A stretch of DNA of 63,928 bases, the filler included, from Atractiella rhizophila (Eukaryota): assembly GCA_021432655.1 (NCBI GenBank). It is 3 parts of 3 records of this genome, joined end to end, with 100 filler letters (N's around TTAATTAATTAA, not from the genome) between each part and the next. Parts side by side here need not be neighbours in the genome. Positions count along the whole stretch, not along the records: positions 1 to 25,464 come from MU271743.1; 2 more parts are not named here. One strand, 5' to 3'. This document shows positions 8,300 through 53,224 of this stretch, piece by piece; position 1 is the first letter of the stretch; each line of letters opens with the position of its first letter. The position numbers and the translations under genes were made by a program. The notes beneath the pieces are model-generated. The model did no database searches and was not told where the DNA came from. It worked only from the letters and a program-made list of their open reading frames with translations.

Positions 8300-9500
8300 T
8301 GCTGAGTCATGCCCTCCGCCCTCACGGTTCTTTGCTTCGCTCCATTTCCTCCGTTCCAACTCGGCGAGAGTTTGCGGCATCGACCACTGCATCCGCTCAC
8401 AACGCAACGTATCCAAAATCCAAACATCCCTTCCTCCAGCAAACGAGCTCTTGCCTGCGCCTCTAACCCGTGCACTCGGATTTTGAACCATCCTCGTTCC
8501 CGTCACCGCTCCATCGTCCATCTCCTCCCGTCTTCAACTTGTCGGATCCTCTCCAATCACGCCTGTCGGATCGAACAACACGTAGCCAGTTAGGATGCGA
8601 GCAACGAACTCGCTAAAAACGACTGGTTGAACAGAGAACGAATGGGGAGGGAGAGCGAGCGGTGTATGTGCCGCCTTTCAACCACGAGGGAAATGCGAGT
8701 CTGGTGCGGGAAATCAAGGACCAATGGGTAAGAGGGCTTCAATGCAGATGGAACAAGTGGTGGATTGCTTGGAGGTAGGCTTAAGGGGCTTGAAGAAGTA
8801 GGCTGCGTTCACAGTGCGCTTCCATTCCTTATCCTCCTCTGTATGAGATTGAGATTCACAGCTGATACGTTCAACAAAATGGAACAGTATCAGTCGCTGC
8901 TGTCGAAACGAGCGAAGCCGCCTCTTTCCGCCCCTCCTCGCCTGACACGCGCACAACATTGCGCCGACTCCGAAGCTCGCGTCATTGGAAGCAATAACCT
9001 CCATTGCCGGCTATTTAGGGGCAAAGACGGTCTCGAAAGAATGTTTCAGGCGTTGGCTTACTCACAAAGGAGGCGTAACGAGTGTGATAGTTGAAGACTT
9101 AAGGGTAGTGGACATGATTGAACGCTTTGCTGGTTCGTCTCCTACTCGCCTTGTTTCATCAACAAAAGCCCTGATGCTTATAGGGATCAATGGATGACCA
9201 TCAAATCCTTGTTGAGCCGCCGTCGCAGCTCTTGCACCTTTCTACGCCGATGGAGCGCCGGAACTCTTGAGGAGGATATTCATGGATCTGCCGAAGGATA
9301 GAGCACAGGGATTTGTCGTTGTTTATGGAGGCAGCCAGGTGTCAATGGCCAAGTTGATGGAGTGGGAGTGACGGTGTGGCGTGGTCGATATTAAGGTCTT
9401 TCGTGGTTGGACGTGTCGGGCTGTCGTTTCATTCCGAAAGCTGATCCCATCAAAATCTGGTTCAACGCTATGGGATAACCCATCTGGACTTTATATTGAG
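8300..9500 (+). pseudogene. Decayed gene remnant of unknown family (paralogue at about 19210-20150)
   Basis: Shared peptide fragments (NELAKNDWL.R.RMGRESERCMCRLSTT; FNKMEQYQSLLSKR; EARVIGSN). Unit 2 lacks the block 9000-9280. Confidence 0.3.
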
Positions 9501-9516
9501 GCATTGTGTGGAAATA

Positions 9517-12500
9517 TTACGTCCTCCATTTTATGATAAATGATAACACGCCTATGCACAATGTTATAATCCTGTGAGGGAAGTCAGCATGCACAAGGCA
9601 ATAAGAGAACGGAACGTACCAAAACCATTTCGACCAATGCGTCGTGGTCAATCTTTTGGACCGCCAAGCATGAGGAGCACATTGTTACACTGGTCCACGT
9701 CGGAAGTGGCAAAACAATCTGTGAAGAGCTGACGCGCCTGAATGATTTCCTCCCTGGCCAGGTCGTATTGGCACGATAGTAAGAGGAGTCGGGCCAGCCT
9801 CCATCTACTCCGAGCTTCGTAGTAGCCGCTGGCTGCTTTGCTCAAATTGACTGCTTCCGCGAGAAACTCGATTGCTTTGAACACGCTCTGGGAGTCCCCA
9901 CTGTAAAGCTCGCTGATATTGAAAAGACAGTTAAGTTGACCTCCTAGGTTTTGATCCAGCAGATACAGCTGCTTCGCCTCCTCGAAATGTCTCAGCGCTT
10001 CCTCCATCCGACCCCGATGCTGCTCAACCTCCCCGATGCTGCGAATGCAGTGGGCTTGCCCCAGCCGATCTTCTACCACCTGGCACAGCTCCTTCGCCTC
10101 CTCGAAACGCCCCAGCGCTTCCTCCGTCTGACCCCGATGCAGCTTGATCTTCCCGATGCTGTAAATGCAGTGCGCTAGCCCCCGCCGATTTTCTACCGCC
10201 TGGTACAGCTCCTTCGCCTCCTCGAAACGCCCCAGCGCTTCCTCCTTCCGACCCCGATGCTGCTCAACCTCCCCGATGCTGCGAATGCAGTGGGCTTGCC
10301 CGAGCCGATCTTCTACCGCCTGGTACAGCTCCTTCGCCTCCTCGAAACGCCGCAGCGCTTCATCCATCTGACCCCGACGCTGCTCGATCTCCCCAATGCT
10401 GTGAATGCAGTGGGCTTGCCCCTGCCGATCTTCTACCACCTGGTACAGCTCCTTCGCCTCCTCAAAACGCCGCAGCGCTTCCTCCATCTGACCCCGATGC
10501 TCCTTGATCTTCCCAATGCTGCGAATGCAGTGGGCTTGCCCCAGCCGATCTTCTACCACCTGGCACAGCTCCTTCGCCTCCTCGAAACGCCCCAGCGCTT
10601 CATCCATCTGACCCCGACGCTGCTCGATCTCCCCGATGCTGCGAATGCAGTGGGCTTGCCCCAGCCGACCTTCTACCACCTGGTATAGCTCCTTTGCCTC
10701 CACAAAATGTTTTAAGGCTGTTTGAGGAATTCCCTGCTGTTGAAATGCAAGACCCACTGCCATTTTCAATTCGGCTTTGAAATTCATTTGAAAACTATTG
10801 GATTTCGTGGTTGATACAACCTGCTGCAACAGTTTGATTGAGAGAAGGTGCTGGAGATACTGAAAGCGCCACATTTCCACAAGGAAATGGACCAACATTG
10901 TCGAATCCTGCAGATGTTCAAAACCGACCAGAAGCACATATTCAAGGTTTGCATGGTCATTGCGGAAACACAACAACCCTATCCGTTCACCATCCACTTC
11001 GAATCGTCGCCTATTTTCCCGAGCTTTATCCATGAGACATTCAGTTAGGGGTTTAAGGGATGGTACAGTGGTTTTAAAAGGCGGGTCACATTGACACACT
11101 ACGTGGTTGATGTATTCGCGAATCGGTGAAAGCATGCGTAGTCGTATCACGTTTGACAAGGCATCCTCCATGTTTTCGGCGAGCCCAGTCGACAAAATCG
11201 AGGTCATGACCACGTAAGACTGCTCTAAATCAGGCAGACAGGACTTTTCCGTAATTGCCACAATATCATTGTTCAAAAGTCCGTCGGGTGTCCAAGATAG
11301 AACGGCAAGAATAAAAGTGCTTAGGTCTTGATGCATTTGAAGGAGAGGTGAACTGAGTGAAAAGCTATCGACCTTGCAAGCGTTGGAGTCTCCTCGCTGT
11401 CCTTGTTCCACAGTGTCATTGTCTTCTTTGCCTCCCACTCCTCTAACAGAGTGGANNNNNNNNNNNNNNNNNNNNNNNNNNNNNNNNNNNNNNNNNNNNN
11501 NNNNNNNNNNNNNNNNNNNNNNNNNNNNNNNNNNNNNNNNNNNNNNNNNNNNNNNNNNNNNNNNNNNNNNNNNNNNNNNNNNNNNNNNNNNNNNNNNNNN
11601 NNNNNNNNNNNNNNNNNNNNNNNNNNNNNNNNNNNNNNNNNNNNNNNNNNNNNNNNNNNNNNNNNNNNNNNNNNNNNNNNNNNNNNNNNNNNNNNNNNNN
11701 NNNNNNNNNNNNNNNNNNNNNNNNNNNNNNNNNNNNNNNNNNNNNNNNNNNNNNNNNNNNNNNNNNNNNNNNNNNNNNNNNNNNNNNNNNNNNNNNNNNN
11801 NNNNNNNNNNNNNNNNNNNNNNNNNNNNNNNNNNNNNNNNNNNNNNNNNNNNNNNNNNNNNNNNNNNNNNNNNNNNNNNNNNNNNNNNNNNNNNNNNNNN
11901 NNNNNNNNNNNNNNNNNNNNNNNNNNNNNNNNNNNNNNNNNNNNNNNNNNNNNNNNNNNNNNNNNNNNNNNNNNNNNNNNNNNNNNNNNNNNNNNNNNNN
12001 NNNNNNNNNNNNNNNNNNNNNNNNNNNNNNNNNNNNNNNNNNNNNNNNNNNNNNNNNNNNNNNNNNNNNNNNNNNNNNNNNNNNNNNNNNNNNNNNNNNN
12101 NNNNNNNNNNNNNNNNNNNNNNNNNNNNNNNNNNNNNNNNNNNNNNNNNNNNNNNNNNNNNNNNNNNNNNNNNNNNNNNNNNNNNNNNNNNNNNNNNNNN
12201 NNNNNNNNNNNNNNNNNNNNNNNNNNNNNNNNNNNNNNNNNNNNNNNNNNNNNNNNNNNNNTCCCACCTGAAGTCTCCGAATGTATCCACCGAGAAACGA
12301 TGATAGCAATGACCCATCTCACGGTCCTGCATCTTCACCTTCACGTCATTTCGAAACATTCGAGCAATCCGCGACTATGGCTCTCAGCGCTTCCTGTATA
12401 TCGTCCCCAGTGCGACCCACCGTGACAGCCCGTGCAACTCCCGGACCGAGAGACACAAGACAGGCAATCTCACTGCTGGGTCCCCAAATTCGATTGGCTT

Positions 12501-13309
12501 CCTCGACGGCTACCAATGTAGGGTTGTTGGCGCTAAGCTGAATGTAGCCGGTGGAATCTTCGTTCATGGGAGGAAAGAAAGGAGGACGGGCAGACGTAGC
12601 CCTTGCGGCTTGCCAGACGAAACATGGGGAAGCGGAGCGAGAGGCAGATCCAGCATGATGAATGTCATAGGTGCGCATTTCCGTTGAAACGACAACGCTG
12701 GCTTGATAACTAGAGAGGACGAACGTCCCCGCACCTATCCTGCGGAGAAGGGTCCTTCATAGGAAGAGGCTCCGTGGGATCTTCAAGGGGGGGCGTGTGT
12801 CGCTGGATGATGGAGATCAAAGTCTCTTCGAGCTTCGTCGCCGAGAACAAGTACTCCCTACTGGGATCCGAATCCTCTTCAACAAAGCCATCCCGCACGA
12901 TCTCTTCGTACGCTGCAATGCACTGACGAACTGTCATCCCCAGCCTGCCGAGCATAAGTGCGATCCACCCGCCAGTCGAAGTCCCACAAATGAGATCGAA
13001 GACATCGCAAGGTCGAAGCTCTTCGTCTTCTGGGACTTTGAGAAGATATGCGGCCTGACGCATGATGGGTTCGAGCATGTAAGGAGCTGAGAAAGTACCG
13101 ACGCCTCCGTTGTCGATAGAAAGGATCCGTAGTCCGAGCGGATTCGTTTTCTTAATATTCTCAGGAATTTTGAACACTTTGACGGAATTTGCGGACATGA
13201 AGGGCAAAGTGTAGGATTGCAGTATGAATCTCCAAAAACAGCGATTGGAATCGTGGTTATAGGTAGAAGAAGGAACTGCCTGAGGCCGGTACAATCTAGT
13301 CACTTCCAT
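9517..13309 (-). CDS. Fungal NLR copy 2: patatin + STAND + 6 conserved TPR units + probable tail-anchor exon; spans a gap and carries 1-nt indels
   Basis: Patatin ORFs 13309-12710 and 12678-12346; the NTPase core is in the gap 11456-12261; the helical/TPR part runs 11360-9648. Single-base indels in homopolymers near 12728, 12350, 11361 and 9655 may be sequencing errors or real lesions. Confidence 0.8.
9965..10710 (-). repeat. 120-bp (40-aa) TPR tandem array of NLR copy 2, 6 units
   Basis: The unit ALxRFEEAKELYQVVEDRLGQAHCIRSIGEIEQHRGQMEE is visible as near-identical alternating 60-base lines. Confidence 0.95.
11456..12261. other. Assembly gap inside NLR copy 2
   Basis: Run of N; the flanks match 22946 and 23832 of copy 3. 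Confidence 0.99.
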
Positions 13310-20167: not shown

Positions 20168-23100
20168 TCAATACGTCCTCCATTTCTCTATGTCAAATGA
20201 CAACACTATGCAAAATGTTACAATCCTGCCAAGGATATCAGTGTGCACAAGACATTGAGTGAAGGGAAAGTACCATAACCATTTCCACCAAAGTCTCGTT
20301 TCCGCTTGCCCAATCATCTGAAGCAGATTGTCACAATCATCTACATCGGAAGTGGCAAAACAATCCGCATAAAGCTGACGGGCACGACCGACTTCCTCTC
20401 GCGCGACGGGGTATTGGGATGATTGCAAGAGGAGTTTAGCTAGGTTGTCTCTGCTCCGAGCCTCACAATAGCCGCCAGCTGCTTTGCTCAAATTGACTGC
20501 TTCCTCTAGCACCCTGATTGCTTTGAAGGTACCCCGGGACTTGGCGTCTCCAGTGTAAACCTCACTTATATTGAAAAGACAATTAAGTTGCGCTCCTAGG
20601 TCTCGCTCCAGCAGGTACAGCGCCTTTGCCTCCTCGAAACGGGACAGAGCTTTATCCGTCTGACCCCGATGCAGCTCGACCTTCCCGATGCTGCGAGTGC
20701 AGTTGGCTTGCCCATGCCGATCTTCTACCACCTCGTACAGCTCCTTCGCCTCCTCAAAATGTCTCAGCGCTTCCTCCATCTGACCACGATGCTGCTCGAT
20801 CTGCCCCAACATGGAGAATGCAGTGGGCTTGCCCCAGCCGATGTTCTACCACCTCGTACACCTCCTTCGCCTCCTCGAAATGTCTCAGCGCTTCCTCCAA
20901 CCAGCCCCAATGCTGCTCGATCTGCCCCACACTGTGAATGCAGTGGGCTTGCCCTAGCCGATTTTCTACCACCTAGTACAGCTCTTTCGCCTCTTCAAAA
21001 TGTCTCAGCGCTGCATCCATCTGACCTCGACGCTTCTCAATAATCCCGATGCTGCGAATGCAGTGGGCCTGCCCCTGCCGATCTTCCACCGCCTGGTAGA
21101 GCTCCTTCGCCTCCTTGAAAAGTCTGAGCGCTTCCTCCATCCGACGCCGACGATGCTTGATCTTCCCGATGCTGCGAATGCAGTGGGCTTGCCCCAGCCG
21201 ATCTTCTACCACCTGGTACAGCTCCTTCGCCTTTTCAAAATGTCTCAGCACTGCATCCATCTGACCTCGACGCTGATCAATAATCCCGATGCTGCGAATG
21301 CAGTGGGCATGCCCTAGCCGATTTTCTACCACCTGGTACAGCTCTTTCGCCTCTTCAAAATGTCTCAGCGCTTCATCCATCTGACCTCGACGCTGCTCAA
21401 TAATCCCGATGCTGCGAATGCAGTGGGCCTGCCCCTGCCGATCTTCCACCGCCTGGTAGAGCTCCTTCGCCTCCTTGAAAAGTCTGAGCGCTTCCTCCAT
21501 CCGACGCCGACGACGCTTGATCTTCCCGATGCTGCGAATGCAGTGGGCTTGCCCCAGCCGATCTTCTACCACCTGGTACAGCTCCTTCGCCTTTTCAAAA
21601 TGTCTCAGCGCTGCATCCATCTGACCTCGACGCTGATCAATAATCCCGATGCTGCGAATGCAGTGGGCCTGCCCCTGCCGATCTTCCACCAACTGGTACA
21701 ACTCCTTCGCCTCCTTGAAACATTTCAGTGCTTCATCCCTCTGACCACGACACCGGTCGATCTCCCCGATGCTACAAATGCAGTGGCTTGCCCCTGCCGA
21801 TCTTCTACCACCTGATACAGCTCCTTCGCCTCCTCGAAACAGCTCATCGCTTCATCCATCCGACCACGATGCCACTCGATCTCCCCGATGCTGAGAATAC
21901 AGTGAGCTTGCCCCTGCCGATCTTCTATAACCTGGTACACCTCCTTAGCCTCCTCGAAACGTCTCAGTGCTTCATCCATCTGACCCCGATGCTGCTTGAT
22001 TTCCCCGATGCTGTGAATGCAGTAGGCTTGCCCCTGCCGATCTTCTACTACCTGATACAGCTCCTTCGCCTCCTCGAAACAGCTCATTGCTTCATCCATC
22101 TGCCCATGTTCTTGAATGATTTTCCCCACATTGCAAATGCAGTCAGCTTGCCCCTGCCAATCTTCCACTGACAGATACAGCTCCTTCGCCTCTTCAAAGT
22201 GTATCAATGCTGCTTGAGGGGTTCCCTGCATGTAAAATGCAAGACCCATTGCCTTTGTCAAATCGGCTGTGCAGTTCATGCAAAAACTATCACCTTTTGT
22301 GGTTGACACGGCATGCTGCAATAGTTTGATTGAGAGAAGGCGCTGGAGATACTGAAAGTGCCAGATTTCTGCAAGGAAACAGGCCAACGATGTCGAATCT
22401 TGCAGATCTTCAAAACCAGCCAGAAGCACATATTCAAGGTTTCGATGGTCGTTGCGGAAATACAACAACCCTATCCGTTCACCGTCTACTTCGAATCGTT
22501 GCCTATTTTCCCAAGCTTTATCCATGAGACGTTCCGTTAGGGGTTTAAGGGATGGTACAGTGGCTTTAAAAGGCAGATTACATTGACGGACTAAGTGGTT
22601 GATGTATTCGCGAATCGGTGAAAGCATGCGTAGTCGTATCACGTTTGACAAGGCATCCTCCATGTTTTCGGCGAGTCCGGTGGACAAAATCGAGGTAAGG
22701 ACCACGTAAGACTGCTCCAAATCAGGCAGACGGGACTTCTCCGCAATTGCCACAATGTCATTGTCCAAAAGTCCGTCAGGTGTCCAGGATAGAATGGCAA
22801 GTATAAACATGCTTAGATCCTGGTGTATTTCAAGGAGAGGCGAACTGAGTGAAAATGCAATCGACCTTGCAAGAGTTGGAGTCTCCTCGCTGTCCTTGTT
22901 CCACAGTGTCATGGTCTTCTTTACCTCCCACTCCTCTAACAGAGTGGAAATACGTTTCGTTGACTCTGCGTTGGCACGAAGAACGAAGAGCTTGATTGAC
23001 AAAGTGTGGTGATCCAGCTTGGCGAAATAGGCCTTGAGTACCTGTTGCTCACAATCCTGTTTTCCCGTGTACAGGTGGTTGAACAGCTCCAACAAGGCTG

Positions 23101-24879
23101 TATCGCTTAGGCCGCGAATCTTCAGCTCTCGAAACTGCATGTCTGTGACGTTCACTCGATAGATCTGATGTCCCCGATGTGCCACAATGAGAACGGACCC
23201 CAAGGCACTCTTGGAAGAAAGAAAGGCTTGAAAGAATGACTGTAGGTGCTCCGTGTCACGCTCTGCCGTGGTTTCAAAATTGTCCAGGATGAGGAGACAT
23301 TTGTGACTATGGAAATATCGCGCAACAGTACCGAGTTCACTTTCGCCAGGTCGAGGGGCTATTGCGAAGACCTGTCTGCAAAGCGCTCTGGCGAGTGATG
23401 AAAATGTAAAGAAAGCGTCGCATCGAGCCCAGAACCGAAAGTCTTCCTCCTCACCACTCGCAATGGTCGTGAATGCATGTTTGACTTCCTTCGCATGCAA
23501 GACTTGTCGGGCCACAGTAGATTTCCCATTGCCAGCGCCACCAATGATCGCAAGGTGTTGTTTGTCGGTGACGCTGCATTTGATTGCAGTCTCAACTTCT
23601 TCATCTCTTCCATAACAATCTCCTGTATGAGGCAACGGAAGCTTCCTGTGCACAGCAATGCGTTGTTTACAGCCTAGCCAGGGGCGAGTCAGCATGGGCT
23701 TGCTGCCGTTAATCACGCAACATGGAGAATACCTTTCACAAGCAATCTCGTTGCAGAGGACACTTCATGATGCATTGCCTCCATGTAAGCCTTCGCGCAG
23801 CCTACAACATTGTTCTTCCGCTCCCATTCCTCCCACCTGAAGTCTCCGAATGTATCCACCGAGAAACGATGATAGCAATGACCCATCTCACGGTCCTGCA
23901 TCTTCACCTTCACATCATTCGAAACATTCGAGCAATCCGCGACTATGTCTCTCAGCGCTTCCTGTATATCGTCCCCAGTGCGACCCACCGTGACAGCCCG
24001 TGCAACTCCTGGACCGAGAGACATAAGACAGGCAATCTCACTGCTGGGTCCCCAAATTCGATTGGCTTCGTCGATGGCTACCGATGTAGGGTTGTTGGTG
24101 CTAAGCTGAACGTAGCCGGTGGAATCTTCGTTCATGGGAGGAAAGAACGGAGGACGGGCAGACGTAGCCCTTGCGGCCTGCCAGACGAAATATGGGGAAG
24201 CCGGTCGAGAGGCAGATCCAGCATGATGAATGTCGTAGGTGCGCATCTCCGTGGAAACGACAACGCTGGCTTGATAGCTAGAGAGGACGAACGTCCTGCA
24301 CCTATCCTGCAGAGATGGGTCCTTCATAGGAACGGGCTTTGTGGGATCTTCTGCGGGGGGGGTGTGTCGCTGGATGATAGAGATCAAAGTCTCTTCGAGT
24401 TTCTTCGCCGAGAACGAGTACTCGCCAGTGGAGTCCGAATCCTCTTCAACAAAGCCGTCTCGCGCGATCTCTTCGTACGCTGTAATGCACTGACGTACTG
24501 TCATCCCCAGCCTCCCGAGCATAAGTGCGATCCACCCGCCAGTAGACGTCCCACAAATAAGATCAAAGACATCGCAAGGTCGAAGTTCTTCGTCCTCAGG
24601 GACGTTGAGAAGATGTGCGGCTTGACGCATGATGGGTTCGAGCATGTAAGGAGCTGAGAAAGTACCGACGCCTCCATTGTCGATAGAAAGGACCCGTAGT
24701 CCGAGCGGGTTAGTTTTCTTCATATTCTCAGGGACTTTGAACACCTTGACGGAATTGGCGAACATGACGGGCAAAGTGTTGGATTGCAGGATGAATGTCC
24801 AATAACAGCGATTGGTATCGTGGTTATAGGTGAAGGAGGAAAGAACTGCCTGAGACTGGTGCAATCTAGTCATTTCCAT
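20168..24879 (-). pseudogene. Fungal NLR copy 3: patatin + STAND + 13 TPR units + C-terminal hydrophobic tail; TPR array disrupted
   Basis: Exon 24879-23733, then a 59-nt intron 23732-23674 (GTATTC..GCTGAC..CTAG, phase 1), then the exon with GGAGNGKST and LLILDNFET. Lesions: -1 near 21785, CAG>TAG at 20975-20973 and +1 near 20810. A truncated 3-repeat protein could still be made. Confidence 0.85.
20620..22200 (-). repeat. 120-bp TPR tandem array of NLR copy 3, 13 units, containing a 360-bp higher-order duplication
   Basis: GQAxC motifs occur every 120 bp from about 22140 to 20700; 20941-21300 is nearly identical to 21301-21660. Confidence 0.93.
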
Positions 24880-25464: not shown

Positions 25465-25564
25465 NNNNNNNNNNNNNNNNNNNNNNNNNNNNNNNNNNNN
25501 NNNNNNNNTTAATTAATTAANNNNNNNNNNNNNNNNNNNNNNNNNNNNNNNNNNNNNNNNNNNN
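25465..25564. other. Scaffolding gap with artificial six-frame-stop linker TTAATTAATTAA
   Basis: N44-TTAATTAATTAA-N44; the same structure occurs at 53125-53224. Confidence 0.95.
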
Positions 25565-53124: not shown

Positions 53125-53224
53125 NNNNNNNNNNNNNNNNNNNNNNNNNNNNNNNNNNNNNNNNNNNNTTAATTAATTAANNNNNNNNNNNNNNNNNNNN
53201 NNNNNNNNNNNNNNNNNNNNNNNN
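53125..53224. other. Scaffolding gap with TTAATTAATTAA linker
   Basis: Same layout as 25465-25564. Confidence 0.95.

Follow-up and report, generated by a model that had tools for sequence, protein, structure and literature searches.

The last exon of a family of patatin-NACHT-TPR receptors in the root fungus Atractiella rhizophila encodes two kinds of C-terminal tail, one ending in a CaaX motif and one hydrophobic, and the two tails are the same exon read in different frames. On balance, we think that the exon serves as a switchable, three-state C-terminal membrane-address module. In the putatively ancestral state, a phase-1 splice would lead to a CC-x-x-S (CaaX) end, predicted to be farnesylated, with the neighboring Cys probably palmitoylated. 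In the derived state, represented by six loci, phase-2 entry and the loss of stops would yield a hydrophobic helix that is led by Trp and closes in a short basic stretch, a predicted tail anchor. In the off state, a 1-nt change or a stop ahead of the intron would leave the protein untailed. Recombination would exchange tails between paralogs.

The window analyzed is a stretch of 63,928 nt (paired 44-N runs at 25465-25564 and 53125-53224 are contig joins). Its first 25 kb holds three tandem patatin-NOD-TPR gene copies, all on the minus strand, each with a Pfam patatin domain (PF01734) above the cut-off. The central STAND NOD of copy 3, with the P-loop GGAGNGKS, fits NACHT (31.6 bits; cut-off, 26.7) better than NB-ARC (22.9, slightly under its cut-off of 23.5), and its C-terminal array of highly identical 120-nt repeats matches TPR_12. 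Copy 1 (1 to 2741) continues beyond the window into G000:C564:1-2195. Copy 2 (9648 to 13198) consists of the patatin, an 806-N gap (11456-12261), the NOD end, the TPR array, and the cap; the gap conceals most of its NOD. Copy 3 has a patatin exon (23733 to 24765) that a predicted 59-nt intron (23674 to 23732) joins in frame to the NOD, TPR array, and family-specific cap (20274 to 23673); an intron is predicted at the same place in copy 1 (1656-1708). As assembled, the copy 3 array carries a -1 lesion (about 21785), a TAG (20973-20975), and a +1 lesion (about 20810).

The sequence-only reading of this window had claimed a 48-nt intron near the end of copies 2 and 3, and both introns are there. 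That of copy 2 (9572 to 9619, minus strand) reads GTACGT..GCTGAC..CACAG, a GT-AG intron with a GCTGAC branch site, and that of copy 3 (20226 to 20273, minus strand; phase 2) reads GTACTT..ACTGAT..GGCAG. Splicing them out reproduces both of the tail peptides given earlier. We compared sequence pieces of four runs (X1, X2, X3, and X10, the first three in small shares) with positions 9300-10300. A 599-nt contig of X10 (depth, 115.9) omits exactly 9572-9619, with CT..AC on the plus strand (GT..AG on the minus strand) and the frame intact, and depth was 0 inside the intron (bin 9572-9605). The splice joint was seen in one of the four runs, in a single contig; X1, X2, and X3 gave short near-identical pieces, and among those listed none crosses the junction. 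We infer that X10 is an RNA-type run, because the skip has canonical splice ends. An intron homologous to that of copy 2 is found in most paralogs. A chance GT-AG pair is ruled out by the X10 splice and by this conservation. The exon had also been described as hidden, but the public model P0154 already splices the copy 3 intron and ends with the in-frame hydrophobic tail of the last exon (20168 to 20225, minus strand), identical to the copy 3 end. The copy 3 intron contains no stop, and its retention would likewise keep the frame.

The spliced contig is a mosaic, because its upstream part matches the paralog L008 and its downstream part does not; it represents either a graph chimera or a recombinant locus missing from the assembly. 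In 9619-9929, it differs from copy 2 by 14 substitutions and one insertion (an extra C after 9663 on the plus strand); L008 shares this insertion and also has 14 substitutions there, and each of the 13 that are listed at the depth of the contig is found in L008. In 9300-9570, the contig has 1 difference from copy 2, against 22 in L008. The last L008-specific base of the contig is 9647, 28 nt from the junction; if words of 31 letters are assumed, the in-frame haplotype is therefore the spliced one.

Copy 2 itself most likely stops before the tail. It had been proposed that a +1 slip in the A-run at 9654-9657 masks an open frame, but in-frame L008 and the X10 contig keep this run unchanged. The real frame difference lies at 9664-9665, where copy 2 has GG and both L008 and the contig have GGG (minus strand). 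The missing base is common to L010, L011 (copy 2), and L012, three of the four closest loci, with L008 as the in-frame sister; over 630 nt, L010 and L012 show 13 and 6 differences from copy 2, respectively. We regard copy 2 as untailed because the deletion is shared by these three loci and the public model P0156 has the same GGPKD end. The native TGA (9648 to 9650, minus strand) lies 28 nt ahead of the intron, and the last exon (9517 to 9571, minus strand), although the frame of L008 reads it as a hydrophobic tail, would thus be untranslated 3' UTR in copy 2 as assembled. A tail anchor on copy 2, as first suggested, is therefore not borne out.

The suggestion might still be defended if copy 2 were intact, its apparent break being a sequencing slip near 9655, and if the tail carried a working patatin phospholipase to the membrane of an organelle. 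We consider this improbable. Copy 2 has three private 1-nt homopolymer indels near the N gap (12730, 12351, and about 11364), so the assembly does produce slips of this kind, and the tail resembles mitochondrial tail anchors, which the available part of one source describes as short, moderately hydrophobic, and flanked by basic residues (PMC7446849). Patatin activity is also required for cell death by PLP-1, as stated in the accessible text of PMC12881547. However, the difference at 9664-9665 is common to three loci, and the patatin lacks a catalytic motif. Aligned to iPLA2beta, the copy 3 patatin keeps the GTSTG serine motif but has no DGG catalytic-Asp motif at the aligned position, and DGG is likewise absent from the patatins of L032, L033, and L037; another Asp sits a few residues upstream of that position. 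At the sequence level, the catalytic Ser-Asp dyad that PLP-1 needs is thus incomplete. Because the serine motif is kept and DGG is absent, the patatin may signal by scaffolding instead of by lipase activity. Placing the patatin at a membrane is also a weak part of the proposal in that the anchor adjoins the TPR sensor, at the opposite end from the patatin. The glycine loop is altered, reading DNGG, in all three patatin domains of the window (23733-24765, 12262-13198, and 1709-2741).

The two tails share their exon in the literal sense. In three-frame reads, hydrophobic exons retain CCHLT, CCLLS, or CYHLS plus a stop in a frame that is blocked by stops. In copy 2, the fossil is CYHLS-stop (9531 to 9548, minus strand), with two blocking stops upstream, and in copy 3 it is CCHLT-stop (20188 to 20205, minus strand), also behind upstream stops. 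Conversely, in the four CaaX exons that we read, the hydrophobic frame meets a stop two codons in. The hydrophobic exon is entered one base over, in phase 2 instead of phase 1. CC remnants occur in the more distant paralogs L022, L027, and L030, which fall outside a 13-row group holding both tail types in the tree of the upstream cap (support, 92/91, not starred). For this reason, we take the CaaX end to be the older state and the hydrophobic tail to be derived from it by frameshift. Copy 3 has a second AG at 20206 (minus strand), 20 nt inside its last exon, that would give a 68-nt intron and the CaaX motif CVVI-stop; with its weak branch site, and being conserved in neither L002 nor L008, it is probably a chance occurrence.

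To place these copies within the family, we searched the same genome with the last 225 residues of copy 3, retrieved the best 30 loci of 251 matches plus 25 stretches, and classed 41 cap-bearing gene ends, some of which may be alleles or duplicate contigs (L043 failed the filter, and the duplicate L029b was dropped). The hydrophobic tail is in frame at 3 of the 41 ends (copy 3, L002, and L008), and a hydrophobic-type exon lies off frame at another 3 (copy 2, L010, and L012). DNA searches found only these six loci with a hydrophobic-type end. CaaX ends are in frame at seven loci, reading CQLS in L003, L004, L006, L007, L013, and L040 and CHIS in L022 (which has a weak donor); a CaaX-type exon is off frame in copy 1 (L005) and L009. 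About 15 ends stop at or before the intron. The others end in CKLSM (2 of 41), in a Lys-rich tail (3 of 41), or in a long downstream frame reached via an earlier intron (3 of 41), and three are unclear. The survey of homologues thus upheld an in-frame hydrophobic tail in a subfamily, not as a constant of the family, and a conserved family-wide anchor is ruled out by the 3 in-frame ends of 41. The end of copy 1, which had been singled out for inspection, carries the CaaX-type exon, and a 1-nt loss makes the protein stop at ETEN ahead of it. Given the roughly 15 ends that stop at or before the intron and the three of six hydrophobic exons that are off frame, a tail is dispensable.

The remaining classes of ends have features of their own. 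The spliced ends of L018 (G000:C139) and L041 (G000:C3) read CKLSM-stop, with the Cys five residues from the end; farnesylation of extended C(x)3X ends is known. In L021, L024, and L026, the homologous intron opens onto tails that are short and rich in Lys and may act as a polybasic signal for a membrane or the nucleus. An earlier cap intron of 48 to 62 nt joins open frames of 298 to 454 codons in L046, L048, and L049, and the public model P0002 has a long C-terminal extension like theirs.

The CaaX ends read CCQLS or CCHIS, with a Cys four residues from the C terminus and acceptable a2 and X residues. The public models P0009 and P0153 end in CCQLS, matching the predicted splices. These ends resemble those of Ras2 and CLN3 in the position of the Cys, and Ras2-type ends in the adjacent Cys; here, however, the motif sits on an NLR of roughly 1,500 residues, and lipidation is predicted from sequence. 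Yeast Ras2 carries a Ras-type CC-a-a-X end, and by analogy with it the Cys beside the CaaX Cys is probably palmitoylated. Farnesylation of the CaaX ends is likewise a prediction; in CLN3, the CQLS motif accepts farnesyl well in vitro, according to the available text of PMC6900386. In L013 (G000:C17) and P0009, the CaaX end is preceded by three extra Cys-Gly units and one further Cys, a stretch that is likely a multi-palmitoylation patch.

Whether the hydrophobic tail would insert into a membrane is less clear-cut. We used the best 19-residue Kyte-Doolittle mean (KD19), for which the transmembrane threshold is about 1.6. L008 (1.69) and the tail frame of copy 2 (1.74) exceed it, and copy 3 (1.52) and L002 (1.34) do not; 1.8% of random stop-free 25-codon frames from the window (n = 20,000) reach 1.6. 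Internal segments of the same proteins have KD19 values of 1.34 to 1.52, and in the scanned patatin and NOD-TPR frames of copy 3, L032, and L033 no 19-residue window exceeds 1.52, which leaves no second transmembrane segment predicted there. By sequence, the tails of copy 3 and L002 are therefore borderline, no more hydrophobic than internal segments, and that of copy 3 has an Asp and a Glu close to its end. Intron-retained tails stay in frame and have KD19 values of 1.55 to 1.81. Hydrophobic and CaaX tails span 13 to 25 residues. The tail had been described as a hydrophobic helix followed by basic residues: a spliced in-frame form exists and is modeled as a helix, but the hydrophobicity is borderline in two of the three in-frame copies. 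Likewise, the claim of a tail-anchored NLR fits the tail of the subfamily, taken as a moderately hydrophobic, basic-flanked anchor, and fails for copy 2 and for the family at large. Mitochondrial and endoplasmic reticulum tail-anchored proteins share the single short C-terminal hydrophobic helix with basic flanks, as far as the part of PMC7446849 at hand describes them; the anchor predicted here differs from them in being recent and derived from a CaaX exon, as well as borderline.

A tail of this hydrophobicity could also act outside the membrane, by prolonging the final helix that caps the TPR solenoid, packing on it, or mediating oligomer or partner contacts. AlphaFold2 places the tail of P0154 as the distal part of one continuous helix (154-196; pLDDT, 82 to 97), and the tail is as hydrophobic as buried internal segments. 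The alignment, however, has no homologous rows for the tail, and the model says little about its packing. The same cap carries a polar CaaX tail or nothing in most paralogs, so the fold needs no extension, and the tail stands where a lipid-anchor signal stood. We therefore judge a purely structural helix to be very unlikely. For the membrane anchor, the strongest argument is this positional one, in that the helix took over the place of a lipid-anchor signal. The strongest argument against it is the state of the genes, since the assembly contains no intact full-length gene with a hydrophobic tail: three lesions interrupt copy 3, the frame of the L002 gene is broken twice, and L008 exists as a contig fragment of 1.9 kb. 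By comparison, the CaaX gene L033 runs from NOD to tail without a break; its patatin frame has 413 codons and its NOD-TPR-cap frame 1,208.

Sequence comparisons suggest that the exon has been kept better than its surroundings. Identity between L008 and L001 is about 48 of 52 positions in the exon versus 90 of 133 in the intron plus UTR (P = 3e-4 by Fisher's test), that between L008 and L002 is about 47 of 55 versus 93 of 130 (P = 0.06), and the exon of the CaaX pair L003/L013 is also better kept than its flanks (P = 0.04), although the counts were rebuilt from rounded identities of 55-nt exons and are small, and the pairs are nonindependent. For L008, this corresponds to 85 to 92% identity in the exon and 67 to 72% in the intron plus UTR. 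Between L001 and L002, conservation of the intron (87% identity) matches that of the exon (85%). The hydrophobic exons contain three indels, each of 3 nt. The pN/pS ratio was 0.56 in the hydrophobic tail frame versus 0.93 and 0.90 in the other frames, and 0.49 in the CaaX frame versus 0.63 and 0.71, in both cases from small, nonindependent counts. The excess of exon identity could also come from gene conversion.

These data bear on a further alternative, in which CaaX is the sole functional anchor and the hydrophobic tail is a neutral by-product or a degradation mark, created by a frameshift into a T-rich exon with many Cys and Gly codons at six loci that are now decaying. The exon does contain 31 to 35% T, and the Trp residues ahead of the junction stem from preexisting TGG/TGT-GG sequence. 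Of the six loci, three are out of frame and not one is intact. In mammalian cells, hydrophobic C-terminal tails readily arise from noncoding sequence or alternative frames and are sent to degradation or to membranes, as the available text of 10.1101/2022.07.20.500724 describes. On the other hand, the in-frame form is the spliced one (depth, 116), the new frame has lost stops where the old one has gained them, and the in-frame indels, a pN/pS of about 0.5, and an exon more conserved than its flanks all speak against this alternative. We hold the by-product explanation to be rather unlikely and retain the address module as the preferred reading.

The tails also have a history separate from that of the caps beside them. 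In a tree of the tail region (21 rows), the six hydrophobic loci form a clade (99/99). In a tree of the upstream cap (36 rows, without five partial ends and one duplicate), the six are split, and a single clade, a group named before the tree was seen, is rejected (p-AU, 0.003). Because the two trees conflict, tail and cap have recombined, and tails have moved between paralogs.

The layout of these receptors is of a known kind, that of fungal patatin-NOD-TPR NLRs, and the terminal tail exon is the new element. PLP-1 of Neurospora crassa and HET-Z1 of Podospora anserina have the same order of patatin, P-loop NOD, and TPR, but as patatin-NB-ARC-TPR proteins, whereas the Atractiella NOD scores better as NACHT, the patatin is without DGG, and a family-specific cap and a CaaX or hydrophobic terminal exon are added. 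The portions of the PLP-1 and HET-Z1 descriptions available to us mention no C-terminal anchor of either type (PMC12881547 and PMC10197012). According to the same portions, PLP-1 senses the t-SNARE SEC-9. In the Atractiella proteins, if they are produced with their tails, either anchor would keep the TPR sensor end at a membrane, near a membrane-bound ligand or guarded protein, and such a target would parallel SEC-9. Ligand binding would then lead to NOD oligomerization and clustering of the N-terminal domains, as described for PLP-1/SEC-9 in those sources. More tentatively, it is possible that one terminal exon encodes two mutually exclusive anchors in different frames, a prenyl/palmitoyl CaaX end and a de novo tail-anchor helix, with 1-base changes switching them off and recombination swapping them, such that related sensors watch different membranes. 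If this two-anchor reading is true, fungal NLRs diversify their location in addition to their sensor repeats.

The closest functional parallel is human OAS1, an immune sensor in which a splice-site variant adds or removes a C-terminal CaaX (p46 versus p42), setting endomembrane targeting and activity, as set out in the accessible part of PMC8357416; its two forms recall the CaaX and off states seen here. OAS1 is an unrelated protein, however, and the Atractiella variation lies among paralogs, stems from frameshift and recombination, and has a helix-type end as a third state. If the tails work, location would be an evolvable trait of fungal immune receptors, as with OAS1 p46 in people, and one could trace in this exon how a frameshift turned an older lipid-anchor signal, which can still be read, into a new membrane anchor.

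All clear relatives of the family in the databases searched are named Atractiella rhizophila. Protein database searches gave 1, 4, and 6 matches, all named Atractiella rhizophila except for one short TPR match; of 150 representative matches listed, 7 were inspected, and the 4 family members among them were all A. rhizophila. None of 250 candidates from a metagenome protein scan was confirmed, and a search for the tail-exon pattern gave 13 loci, none similar beyond the pattern. For a conservation test, these protein, metagenome, and pattern searches thus yielded no relative outside A. rhizophila. The tail had been called unfamiliar from characterized fungal NLRs, and the literature agrees: a search covering a minority of the subscription papers found no C-terminal lipid or helix anchor for a fungal NLR, nothing joining fungal NLR, patatin, and CaaX, and only an unrelated review for Atractiella and NLR. 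In the main text of two fungal NLR surveys (PMC9815663 and PMC12258605), the terms transmembrane, prenyl, and palmitoyl are absent.

Two further loci showed unusual gene structures. L037 (G000:C189:53500-63499) has one patatin followed by two tandem NOD-TPR units (1071 and 644 codons) and then the cap, which reflects either an internal duplication or a misassembly. The public model P0001 (G000:C189 L033/L084) joins a TPR-cap fragment to a neighboring methyltransferase-like gene and looks like a gene-model fusion.
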